Shown: piece by piece, positions 16,069 through 22,178 of the stretch
Numbering within the stretch: the first letter of the stretch is position 1
Layout of the letters: every line of letters starts with the position of its first letter
NCBI RefSeq assembly: GCF_003018255.1
Contig: NZ_CP027440.1
From: Escherichia coli
Lineage (GTDB): Bacteria; Pseudomonadota; Gammaproteobacteria; Enterobacterales; Enterobacteriaceae
Reading direction: 5' to 3' (one strand)
Length of the DNA: 64,000 nt
Position numbers and translations under genes: made by a program
Notes under the pieces: model-generated
What the model was told of the DNA's origin: nothing
Database searches by the model: none
The model's input: only the letters and a program-made list of their open reading frames with translations

Positions 16069-17367
16069 ATGCAAGTTTCAGTTGAAACCACTCAAGGCCT
16101 TGGCCGCCGTGTAACGATTACTATCGCTGCTGACAGCATCGAGACCGCTGTTAAAAGCGAGCTGGTCAACGTTGCGAAAAAAGTACGTATTGACGGCTTC
16201 CGCAAAGGCAAAGTGCCAATGAATATCGTTGCTCAGCGTTATGGTGCGTCTGTACGCCAGGACGTTCTGGGTGACCTGATGAGCCGTAACTTCATTGACG
16301 CCATCATTAAAGAAAAAATCAATCCGGCTGGCGCACCGACTTATGTTCCGGGCGAATACAAGCTGGGTGAAGACTTCACCTACTCTGTAGAGTTTGAAGT
16401 TTATCCGGAAGTTGAACTGCAGGGTCTGGAAGCGATCGAAGTTGAAAAACCGATCGTTGAAGTGACCGACGCTGACGTTGACGGCATGCTGGATACTCTG
16501 CGTAAACAGCAGGCGACCTGGAAAGAAAAAGACGGCGCTGTTGAAGCAGAAGACCGCGTAACCATCGACTTCACCGGTTCTGTAGACGGCGAAGAGTTCG
16601 AAGGCGGTAAAGCGTCTGATTTCGTACTGGCGATGGGCCAGGGGCGTATGATTCCGGGCTTTGAAGACGGTATCAAAGGCCACAAAGCTGGCGAAGAGTT
16701 CACCATCGACGTGACCTTCCCGGAAGAATACCACGCAGAAAACCTGAAAGGTAAAGCAGCGAAATTCGCTATCAACCTGAAGAAAGTTGAAGAGCGTGAA
16801 CTGCCGGAACTGACTGCAGAATTCATCAAACGTTTCGGCGTTGAAGATAGTTCCGTAGAAGGTCTGCGCGCTGAAGTGCGTAAAAACATGGAGCGCGAGC
16901 TGAAGAGCGCCATCCGTAACCGCGTTAAGTCTCAGGCGATCGAAGGTCTGGTAAAAGCTAACGACATCGACGTACCGGCTGCGCTGATCGACAGCGAAAT
17001 CGACGTTCTGCGTCGCCAGGCTGCACAGCGTTTCGGTGGCAACGAAAAACAAGCTCTGGAACTGCCGCGTGAACTGTTTGAAGAACAGGCTAAACGTCGC
17101 GTAGTTGTTGGCCTGCTGCTGGGCGAAGTTATCCGCACCAACGAGCTGAAAGCTGACGAAGAGCGCGTGAAAGGCCTGATCGAAGAGATGGCTTCTGCGT
17201 ACGAAGATCCGAAAGAAGTTATCGAGTTCTACAGCAAAAACAAAGAACTGATGGACAACATGCGCAATGTTGCTCTGGAAGAACAGGCTGTTGAAGCTGT
17301 ACTGGCGAAAGCGAAAGTGACTGAAAAAGAAACCACTTTCAACGAGCTGATGAACCAGCAGGCGTAA
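16069..17367 (+). CDS. tig: trigger factor
   Basis: Track ORF 432 aa, [32 protein letters not shown]... Confidence 0.97.
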
Positions 17368-17400
17368 TTTACGCAGCATAACGCGCTAAATTCGCACAAA

Positions 17401-17433
17401 GGCCCGTCACCGCCAGGTGGTGGGCTTTTTTTT
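17401..17433 (+). terminator. Rho-independent terminator after tig
   Basis: GC-rich imperfect hairpin GCCCGTCACC/GGTGGTGGGC followed by T8. Confidence 0.7.
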
Positions 17434-17504
17434 GTCATGAATTTTGCATGGAACCGTGCGAAAAGCCTCTTTCGGTGTTAGCGTAACAACAAAAGATTGT
17501 TATG

Positions 17505-17534
17505 CTTGAAATATGGTGATGCCGTACCCATAAC
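17505..17534 (+). promoter_or_regulatory. sigma-32 heat-shock promoter of clpP (CTTGAAA-N15-CCCATAAC)
   Basis: Motifs read about 80-110 nt upstream of clpP ATG; clpP is a known sigma-32 regulon member. Confidence 0.6.
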
Positions 17535-17612
17535 ACAGGGACTAGCTGATAATCCGTCCATAAGGTTACAATCGGTACAGCAGGTTTTTTCAATTTTATC
17601 CAGGAGACGGAA

Positions 17613-18236
17613 ATGTCATACAGCGGCGAACGAGATAACTTTGCACCCCATATGGCGCTGGTGCCGATGGTCATTGAACAGACCTCACGTGGTGAGCGCT
17701 CTTTTGATATCTATTCTCGTCTACTTAAGGAACGCGTCATTTTTCTGACTGGCCAGGTTGAAGACCACATGGCTAACCTGATTGTGGCGCAGATGCTGTT
17801 CCTGGAAGCAGAAAACCCAGAAAAAGATATCTATCTGTACATTAACTCCCCAGGCGGGGTGATCACTGCCGGGATGTCTATCTATGACACCATGCAGTTT
17901 ATCAAGCCTGATGTCAGCACCATCTGTATGGGCCAGGCGGCTTCGATGGGCGCTTTCTTGCTGACTGCAGGGGCAAAAGGTAAACGTTTCTGCCTGCCGA
18001 ATTCGCGCGTGATGATTCACCAGCCGTTGGGCGGCTACCAGGGCCAGGCGACCGATATCGAAATTCATGCCCGTGAAATTCTGAAAGTTAAAGGGCGCAT
18101 GAATGAACTTATGGCGCTTCATACGGGTCAATCATTAGAACAGATTGAACGTGATACCGAGCGCGATCGCTTCCTTTCCGCCCCTGAAGCGGTGGAATAC
18201 GGTCTGGTCGATTCGATTCTGACCCATCGTAATTGA
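17613..18236 (+). CDS. clpP: ATP-dependent Clp protease proteolytic subunit
   Basis: Track ORF 207 aa; active-site Ser in GQAASMG. Confidence 0.97.
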
Positions 18237-19636: not shown

Positions 19637-19668
19637 TTAACCATTCCCATACAATTAGTTAACCAAAA

Positions 19669-19698
19669 AGGGGGGATTTTATCTCCCCTTTAATTTTT
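19669..19698 (+). terminator. probable terminator after clpX (GGGGA/TCCCC stem, U-rich tail)
   Basis: Hairpin and T-rich run read from sequence. Confidence 0.6.
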
Positions 19699-19713
19699 CC
19701 TCTATTCTCGGCG

Positions 19714-19740
19714 TTGAATGTGGGGGAAACATCCCCATAT
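19714..19740 (+). promoter_or_regulatory. sigma-32 heat-shock promoter of lon (TTGAAT-N13-CCCCATAT)
   Basis: Motifs read about 85-110 nt upstream of lon ATG. Confidence 0.7.
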
Positions 19741-19823
19741 ACTGACGTACATGTTAATAGATGGCGTGAAGCACAGTCGTGTCATCTGATTACCTGGCGG
19801 AAATTAAACTAAGAGAGAGCTCT

Positions 19824-22178
19824 ATGAATCCTGAGCGTTCTGAACGCATTGAAATCCCCGTATTGCCGCTGCGCGATGTGGTGGTTTATCCGCACATGGT
19901 CATCCCCTTATTTGTCGGGCGGGAAAAATCTATCCGTTGTCTGGAAGCGGCGATGGACCATGATAAAAAAATTATGCTGGTCGCGCAGAAAGAAGCTTCA
20001 ACGGATGAGCCGGGTGTAAACGATCTTTTCACCGTCGGGACCGTGGCCTCTATATTGCAGATGCTGAAACTGCCTGACGGCACCGTCAAAGTGCTGGTCG
20101 AGGGGTTACAGCGCGCGCGTATTTCTGCGCTCTCTGACAATGGCGAACACTTTTCTGCGAAGGCGGAGTATCTGGAGTCGCCGACCATTGATGAGCGGGA
20201 ACAGGAAGTGCTGGTGCGTACTGCAATCAGCCAGTTCGAAGGCTACATCAAGCTGAACAAAAAAATCCCACCAGAAGTGCTGACGTCGCTGAATAGCATC
20301 GACGACCCGGCGCGTCTGGCGGATACCATTGCTGCACATATGCCGCTGAAACTGGCTGACAAACAGTCCGTTCTGGAGATGTCCGACGTTAACGAACGTC
20401 TGGAATATCTGATGGCAATGATGGAATCGGAAATCGATCTGCTGCAGGTTGAGAAACGCATTCGCAACCGCGTTAAAAAGCAGATGGAGAAATCCCAGCG
20501 TGAGTACTATCTGAACGAGCAAATGAAAGCTATTCAGAAAGAACTCGGTGAAATGGACGACGCGCCGGACGAAAACGAAGCCCTGAAGCGCAAAATTGAC
20601 GCGGCGAAAATGCCGAAAGAGGCAAAAGAGAAAGCGGAAGCAGAGTTGCAGAAGCTGAAAATGATGTCTCCGATGTCGGCAGAAGCGACCGTAGTGCGTG
20701 GTTATATCGACTGGATGGTACAGGTGCCGTGGAATGCGCGCAGCAAGGTCAAAAAAGACCTGCGTCAGGCGCAGGAAATCCTTGATACCGACCATTATGG
20801 TCTGGAGCGCGTGAAAGATCGCATCCTTGAGTATCTTGCGGTTCAAAGCCGTGTCAACAAAATCAAGGGACCGATCCTCTGCCTGGTAGGGCCGCCGGGG
20901 GTAGGTAAAACCTCTCTTGGTCAGTCCATTGCCAAAGCCACCGGGCGTAAATATGTCCGTATGGCGCTGGGCGGCGTGCGTGATGAAGCGGAAATCCGTG
21001 GTCACCGCCGTACTTACATCGGTTCTATGCCGGGTAAACTGATCCAGAAAATGGCGAAAGTGGGCGTGAAAAACCCGCTGTTCCTGCTCGATGAGATCGA
21101 CAAAATGTCTTCTGACATGCGTGGCGATCCGGCCTCCGCACTGCTTGAAGTGCTGGATCCAGAGCAGAACGTAGCGTTCAGCGACCACTACCTGGAAGTG
21201 GATTACGACCTTAGCGACGTGATGTTTGTCGCGACGTCGAACTCCATGAACATTCCGGCACCGCTGCTGGATCGTATGGAAGTGATTCGCCTCTCCGGTT
21301 ATACCGAAGATGAAAAACTGAACATCGCCAAACGTCACCTGCTGCCGAAGCAGATTGAACGTAATGCACTGAAAAAAGGTGAGCTGACCGTCGACGATAG
21401 CGCCATTATCGGCATTATTCGTTACTACACCCGTGAGGCGGGCGTGCGTGGTCTGGAGCGTGAAATCTCCAAACTGTGTCGCAAAGCGGTTAAGCAGTTA
21501 CTGCTCGATAAGTCATTAAAACATATCGAAATTAACGGCGATAACCTGCATGACTATCTCGGTGTTCAGCGCTTCGACTATGGTCGCGCGGATAACGAAA
21601 ACCGTGTCGGTCAGGTAACTGGTCTGGCGTGGACGGAAGTGGGCGGTGACTTGCTGACCATTGAAACCGCGTGCGTTCCGGGTAAAGGCAAACTGACCTA
21701 TACCGGATCGCTTGGCGAAGTGATGCAGGAGTCCATTCAGGCGGCGTTAACGGTGGTTCGTGCGCGTGCGGAAAAACTGGGGATCAACCCTGATTTTTAT
21801 GAAAAACGCGACATCCACGTCCACGTACCGGAAGGTGCGACGCCGAAAGATGGTCCGAGTGCCGGTATTGCTATGTGCACCGCGCTGGTTTCTTGCCTGA
21901 CCGGTAACCCGGTTCGTGCTGATGTGGCAATGACCGGTGAGATCACTCTGCGTGGTCAGGTACTGCCTATCGGTGGTTTGAAAGAAAAACTACTGGCAGC
22001 GCATCGCGGCGGGATCAAAACAGTGTTAATTCCGTTCGAAAATAAACGCGATCTGGAAGAGATTCCTGACAACGTAATTGCCGATCTGGATATTCATCCT
22101 GTGAAACGCATTGAGGAAGTTCTGACTCTGGCGCTGCAAAATGAACCGTCTGGCATGCAGGTTGTGACTGCAAAATAG
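19824..22178 (+). CDS. lon: Lon protease
   Basis: Track ORF 19779..22178 trimmed to [16 protein letters not shown] (784 aa); Walker A GPPGVGKT; catalytic Ser in PKDGPSAG. Confidence 0.97.

Follow-up and report, generated by a model that had tools for sequence, protein, structure and literature searches.

The 64,000 nucleotides of Escherichia coli DNA analyzed here (contig NZ_CP027440.1 of assembly GCF_003018255.1, hereafter the window) very probably carry three classical heat-shock promoters of the RpoH (sigma-32) type, which precede clpPX, lon, and htpG. RNA polymerase with sigma-32 would recognize a -35 element CTTGAA and a -10 element CCCCAT separated by 14-15 bp, and would start transcription around 10 nt past the T of the -10. 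Heat or protein misfolding would then raise sigma-32 and lead to the joint induction of two proteases and Hsp90. The genes clpP, lon, and htpG are classical heat-shock genes. The sigma-32 consensus was defined in part from their promoters, and the gene cluster belongs to textbook knowledge. In other words, the promoters and the cluster are already known and are established E. coli biology. The discovery value of the analysis is small, and its only mildly new item concerns the junction between recR and htpG, where a covarying hairpin devoid of a U-tract runs directly into the htpG -35. This junction is conserved with compensatory changes in two enterobacterial families, which is the one modest detail that we add.

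The search for the promoters covered both strands of the 64 kb with the pattern CTTGAA-N13..16-CCCCAT, and was scored by mismatches to the consensus, not with a published weight matrix. The consensus and the geometry were taken from the open-complex structure paper (PMC10216364). Exactly three sites with at most one mismatch were found, at clpP, lon, and htpG (Table 1). The htpG site is perfect, that of clpP has one mismatch in the -10 (5/6), and that of lon has one in the -35 (5/6), with spacers of 15, 15, and 14 bp, respectively. Each lies on the coding strand of a heat-shock gene, with its -10 ending 53-85 nt short of the start codon. The original prediction, made from the letters only, had placed sigma-32-type motifs at these genes; the scan recovers them at the coordinates given there, as the sole sites of this quality in the window. 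This shows that real sigma-32 promoters can be recognized from sequence alone, without tools.

Published data on K-12 apply directly to the window because the intergenic spacers are identical or nearly so. Those between tig and clpP and between clpX and lon have 100% identity to K-12. The recR-htpG spacer has two single-nucleotide polymorphisms (SNPs), at 55988 (in the promoter spacer; T in K-12, C in the window) and at 56009 (position -2; A in K-12, T in the window). Both are outside the hexamers and no functional difference is expected from them. The RpoH-regulon promoters of clpPX, lon, and htpG in K-12 thus have the same genes, the same order, and the same htpG hexamers and spacing as the window. 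A re-examination of sigma-32 chromatin immunoprecipitation on microarrays (ChIP-chip) has the three genes among its confirmed targets (clpP 2.0, lon 2.5, htpG 2.8; PMC2996942, Table 2).

The transcription starts mapped in K-12 are also in line with the motifs. Cho et al. 2014 give starts at 455829, 458037, and 494300 in U00096.2 numbering (PMC3923258, supplement 7). Converted with a 776-bp shift to NC_000913.3 and then with the offset to the window, they correspond to 17541 for clpP, 19749 for lon, and 56011 for htpG. Sigma-32 ('H') is among the sigma factors assigned at clpP and lon and is the sole one at htpG, while tig has no sigma-32 assignment in that study (PMC3923258). The starts of SMRT-Cappable-seq (SMRT, single-molecule real-time) at 456604, 458812, and 495075 of NC_000913.3 (PMC6131387) become 17540, 19748, and 56010, within 1 nt of those of Cho et al. 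For comparison, the dnaK P1 scaffold has CTTGAA at -35 to -30, CCCCAT at -15 to -10, and a start 10 nt past the T (PMC10216364). This geometry predicts starts at 17541, 19748, and 56011. The mapped ones differ from these by at most one base and lie 9-11 nt beyond the T of each -10. The promoters of the window share with dnaK P1 the CTTGAA/CCCCAT elements and the start 10 nt past the T. They differ from it in that the dnaK P1 spacer has 14 bp and those of clpP and htpG have 15, whereas the -10 of clpP is ACCCAT and the -35 of lon is GTTGAA. We infer that these genes depend on heat or RpoH in this particular strain.

Conservation across species was assessed for the htpG promoter. The search started from the first eleven htpG codons, independently of the promoter, and gave 120 Enterobacterales species, 115 of them with usable upstream sequences. 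The motif CTTGAA-N14/15-CCCCAx is kept in all 115 (one of them with GTTGAA), and the spacer and the flanks vary freely. Compared with the consensus, the promoter is perfect in 82 species and deviates by one mismatch in 30 and by two in 3.

Some observations weigh against the heat-shock reading. The count of matches alone is not significant, since dinucleotide-preserving shuffles give 1.1 +/- 1.0 sites with at most one mismatch per 128 kb (both strands) and 27 out of 300 reach three or more. The main text of a work on genomic SELEX (systematic evolution of ligands by exponential enrichment) of the RpoH holoenzyme, in the portion accessible to us, does not include htpG, and clpP is named there only among the sites of RpoS, the stationary-phase sigma factor. 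We read both as limited sensitivity of that assay. Together with the other starts of clpP and the overlapping promoter of lon described below, the shuffles could be taken to mean that a short consensus was matched by chance and that other promoters drive the genes. However, the chance explanation fails because it is the placement of the motifs, on the coding strand and close to a start codon, and not their count, that is improbable: we estimate that only ~6% of the positions and strands are so placed (~58 genes x ~130 positions over 128,000), which leaves ~0.07 chance matches. With mapped starts exactly where the motifs predict them, a sigma-32 ChIP signal at all three sites, and an htpG motif kept throughout the 115 species amid variable spacer and flanks, the idea of chance matches is effectively refuted and retains almost no probability. 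Sites with two mismatches number 9, fewer than the 17.8 expected by chance. The 5 of them that were placed against the annotation and the starts assigned to sigma-32 were rejected as further promoters, since none fits; the other four are minus-strand sites (38198, 27583, 13905, and 7687/7674).

Sigma-32 is not the sole driver of clpP and lon, at which sigma-70 is assigned as well. At least three tandem starts are found upstream of clpP in the K-12 data (region 17501-17579): 17513, the sigma-32 start at 17540/41, and 17578. The first of them is within the sigma-32 spacer, with a -10-like hexamer TATGCT that overlaps CTTGAA, and the last is 6 nt past TACAAT (17567-72). At lon, a sigma-70-like promoter TTGAAT-N18-TATACT (19714-19743) overlaps the sigma-32 elements, and the start is assigned to both sigma-70 and sigma-32 by Cho et al. 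(PMC3923258). Our proposed mechanism has clpP and lon also taking sigma-70 input, the former via its tandem starts and the latter via the overlapping promoter, and htpG would use sigma-32 alone. Each of the three promoters sits downstream of a 3'-end signal of the preceding gene.

For clpP and lon these signals are canonical terminators. The K-12 Term-seq 3' end of tig at 456492 is at window position 17428, the third T of the T8 run, 77 nt upstream of the clpP -35. This terminator is leaky, as full-length tig-clpP-clpX reads cross it in the SMRT-Cappable-seq data (PMC6131387). The 3' end of clpX is at 458758 in Term-seq (window 19694, 19 nt before the lon -35) and at 458758/9 in SMRT-Cappable-seq.

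The junction of recR with htpG has a different organization. It had been proposed that the htpG promoter abuts the recR terminator hairpin, so that transcription would start immediately after a stop signal. The contiguity is real: the hairpin, CGAGAGCAGG-ATCA-CCTGCTCTCG, is a perfect GC-rich stem that begins 6 nt after the TAA of recR (55943-55945), and its last base directly precedes the C of the htpG CTTGAA. Its predicted RNA fold has -22.4 kcal/mol, with z = -6.2 relative to shuffles. Term-seq of K-12 places a 'primary' 3' end of recR at 495042 (supplement 1 of PMC7815308), which is window position 55977, the second T of CTTGAA and 3 nt past the stem. All the units listed from the apt, dnaX, and ybaB promoters in the SMRT-Cappable-seq data end at recR (PMC6131387). 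In the operon table of that study, no full-length transcript runs from recR into htpG. Read-through is nevertheless recorded there for tig-clpP-clpX, lon-hupB, and htpG-adk. Hence, the succession of stop and start holds.

Two features of the junction count against a canonical intrinsic terminator. The hairpin fails the U-tract criterion, with a tail CUUGAAAU (CTTGAAAT, 3 T in 8), and the terminator scan of the window did not report it because it has no T-run. Furthermore, a 3' end so close to the stem resembles a trimmed end more than a classical termination point. The canonical intrinsic terminators of the window (tig, clpX, lon, and hupB) share with the recR hairpin a GC-rich stem-loop after the stop codon and a mapped 3' end, and differ from it by their U-tract and by the distance of the 3' end from the stem. 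The U-tract is lacking in the recR hairpin because the htpG -35 occupies its place. We conclude that the hairpin marks an efficient transcript boundary, because there is a 3' end at the foot of the stem and no listed recR-htpG unit, and that it is not a canonical intrinsic terminator. Such a boundary is compatible both with termination at the hairpin and with the trimming of longer transcripts. Transcripts of recR would end within the -35 hexamer of htpG, and transcription of htpG would begin 37 nt past the stem. The recR/htpG junction is thus a natural case of a 3'-end signal and a promoter sharing a few bases. An extended stem that pairs TTTTAAGC (recR stop region) with GCTTGAAA (htpG -35) in E. 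coli was also considered. By inspection, it has no counterpart in other genera and we regard it as incidental.

It is possible, if on the whole unlikely, that the hairpin is not a terminator at all. Transcription would then end elsewhere, either in a Rho-dependent manner or further into htpG, and 3'-to-5' exonucleases would trim the transcripts to the protective stem. Classical intrinsic 3' ends lie further into the U-run than the one observed here, and Rho-dependent 3' ends are trimmed back to stable stems. This fits the tail devoid of a U-tract and the position of the 3' end. One published study concerns 3' ends of Rho-dependent transcripts (PMC6061677). However, no recR-htpG unit appears among full-length reads that do include read-through elsewhere, and the recR site is absent from the Rho-related Term-seq supplement (file 3), which may cover internal ends only.

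The abutting hairpin is conserved beyond E. coli. A stem of at least 8 bp ending at -1/0 relative to the C of the -35 is present in 55 of the 115 species, compared with 15 out of 5750 shuffles. These 55 species all belong to genera of Enterobacteriaceae or Erwiniaceae in which recR ends a few bases upstream. Their stem sequences differ widely, yet 96-100% of the 55 distinct sequences retain the pairs at -1 to -8, with 3-6 pair types per position, and sliding the partners by 1-3 columns lowers the pairing to 38-54%. The pairs were counted relative to CTTGAA and against shuffled and shifted controls, but the register was chosen by pairing and therefore leans towards structure. Over this part of the stem (-1 to -8), G-T cells number 31 and non-pairs at most 7, a count biased by the stem finder, which allowed G-T. 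A MAFFT alignment of 58 hairpin regions gave no pairs in RNAalifold, as the loops vary in length and the 5' arms do not line up. In Yersiniaceae, Pectobacteriaceae, Morganellaceae, and Hafniaceae, the hairpin, where seen, is 25-50 nt further upstream, so that the tight junction is specific to Enterobacteriaceae and Erwiniaceae. Among the loci with a distant hairpin, four of Serratia have it ~27-31 nt before the htpG -35, not abutting, and in most others it is further still.

We think it improbable that the fusion of the hairpin with the htpG -35 in these two families is a selected device and not simple spacer compaction. If it were one, the hairpin might act as a non-canonical terminator with the -35 and the spacer as release tract, so that polymerases arriving from upstream would not occlude the sigma-32 promoter. 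Another possibility is an efficiency tuned to couple the expression of recR and htpG. Even less credible, and very improbable in our view, is that the inverted repeat acts at the level of DNA, as a protein-binding palindrome or a cruciform regulating the htpG promoter. The repeat spans -36 to -59, where upstream promoter contacts are made, and its position relative to the -35 is fixed in the 55 species. However, what is conserved is the complementarity and not the sequence of the stem, which argues against a sequence-specific protein site. The G-T cells, with the bias noted above, fit an RNA of the plus strand, and the 3' end of the plus-strand RNA maps to the foot of the repeat.

Table 1. Features of the window discussed in the text, with the evidence for each (ORF, open reading frame; CDS, coding sequence; sRNA, small RNA).
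Feature	Position	Strand	Evidence
clpP sigma-32 promoter	17505..17541	+	CTTGAA 17505-17510, N15, ACCCAT 17526-17531, start 17540/17541
lon promoter	19713..19749	+	GTTGAA 19713-19718, N14, CCCCAT 19733-19738, start 19748/19749
htpG sigma-32 promoter	55975..56011	+	CTTGAA 55975-55980, N15, CCCCAT 55996-56001, start 56010/56011
recR 3' hairpin, 10-bp stem, 4-nt loop, no U-tract	55951..55974	+	Fold, Term-seq, covariation
tig intrinsic terminator, hairpin and T8	17398..17437	+	Terminator scan, fold -21.4 kcal/mol, Term-seq
clpX terminator hairpin	19667..19696	Both strands terminator-like	Terminator scan, Term-seq, transcript ends
sraA sRNA gene	19657..19752	-	Rfam RF02029, 106.7 bits (gathering 56), model 1-95 of 95
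tig (trigger factor) CDS	16069..17367	+	ORF, RefSeq annotation of identical genome, NCBIfam TIGR00115 476.6 bits
clpP CDS	17613..18236	+	ORF, annotation, TIGR00493 369.9 bits
clpX CDS	18362..19636	+	ORF, annotation, TIGR00382 719.3 bits
lon CDS	19824..22178	+	Annotation, NF008053 1817.8 bits, residues 1-784 of 784
recR CDS	55340..55945	+	TIGR00615 282.4 bits
htpG CDS	56055..57929	+	NF003555 861.7 bits

Judged by its sequence, the window is ordinary E. coli chromosome covering the tig-clpP-clpX-lon ... recR-htpG region. From 16069 to 22178 (6.1 kb), it has 100% identity to the chromosome of E. coli strain JNE23-011, and this stretch occurs in 5424 out of 5426 complete genomes of E. coli. The annotation of JNE23-011 has bolA, tig, clpP, clpX, lon, hupB, and ppiD all in the same orientation, and the layout of K-12 MG1655 matches the window on through recR-htpG-adk. 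The head-to-tail order of tig, clpP, clpX, and lon, also part of the original prediction, is borne out by the ORFs, the annotation, and the NCBIfam matches; the equivalog models of these four genes, recR, and htpG all score well over their cut-offs. The start codon of lon is the annotated ATG, and the in-frame GTG upstream at 19779 is the mechanical start of the ORF list.

The original prediction had overlooked several elements: the tandem clpP starts described above, two features of the clpX-lon spacer, and a sigma-E-like motif inside clpP. The sRNA gene sraA is antisense to the whole lon promoter and to the clpX terminator, and SraA has been listed between clpX and lon (PMC3384567). The lon start and the 5' end of sraA are predicted to overlap head-to-head by ~4 bases, which suggests mutual exclusion. 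The K-12 list of Cho et al. has no minus-strand start at sraA, and the RefSeq feature table of K-12 lacks the gene. The spacer of the lon promoter, GGGGGAAACATCCCC, is a known hot spot for the insertion of IS186 (PMC3045373). The window holds this target intact at 19722-19736, between the lon -35 and -10, with no insertion. The uninterrupted clpX-lon spacer is missing in 55 of 5424 complete E. coli genomes. In NZ_CP137696.1, the break is at window position 19739, beside an IS4-like IS421 transposase, and lon is deleted through to entD.

A few other observations concern neighboring genes. Inside the 3' end of clpP there is a sigma-E-like motif (GAACTT 18105-10, N17, TCAAT 18128-32). A K-12 start lies 6 nt past it, at window position 18138 (827 reads; SMRT-Cappable-seq 457201), with sigma-32 and sigma-E assigned by ChIP. 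This start looks like a separate promoter of clpX, possibly of clpX-lon. The next gene along in the same orientation as lon and hupB, ppiD, encodes a periplasmic chaperone and is reported to have a heat-shock promoter. The best candidate for a sigma-32 promoter of ppiD, CTTGTG-N13-CCCCGT at 22747-22771, has 3 mismatches and is not confirmed as one; the only sigma factors placed there by Cho et al. are sigma-70 and sigma-S. Finally, Rfam models identify the DnaX programmed frameshift element at 54291-54355 (96.8 bits) and the 4.5S SRP (signal recognition particle) RNA gene ffs at 37390-37486 (68.1 bits), both expected in this region.

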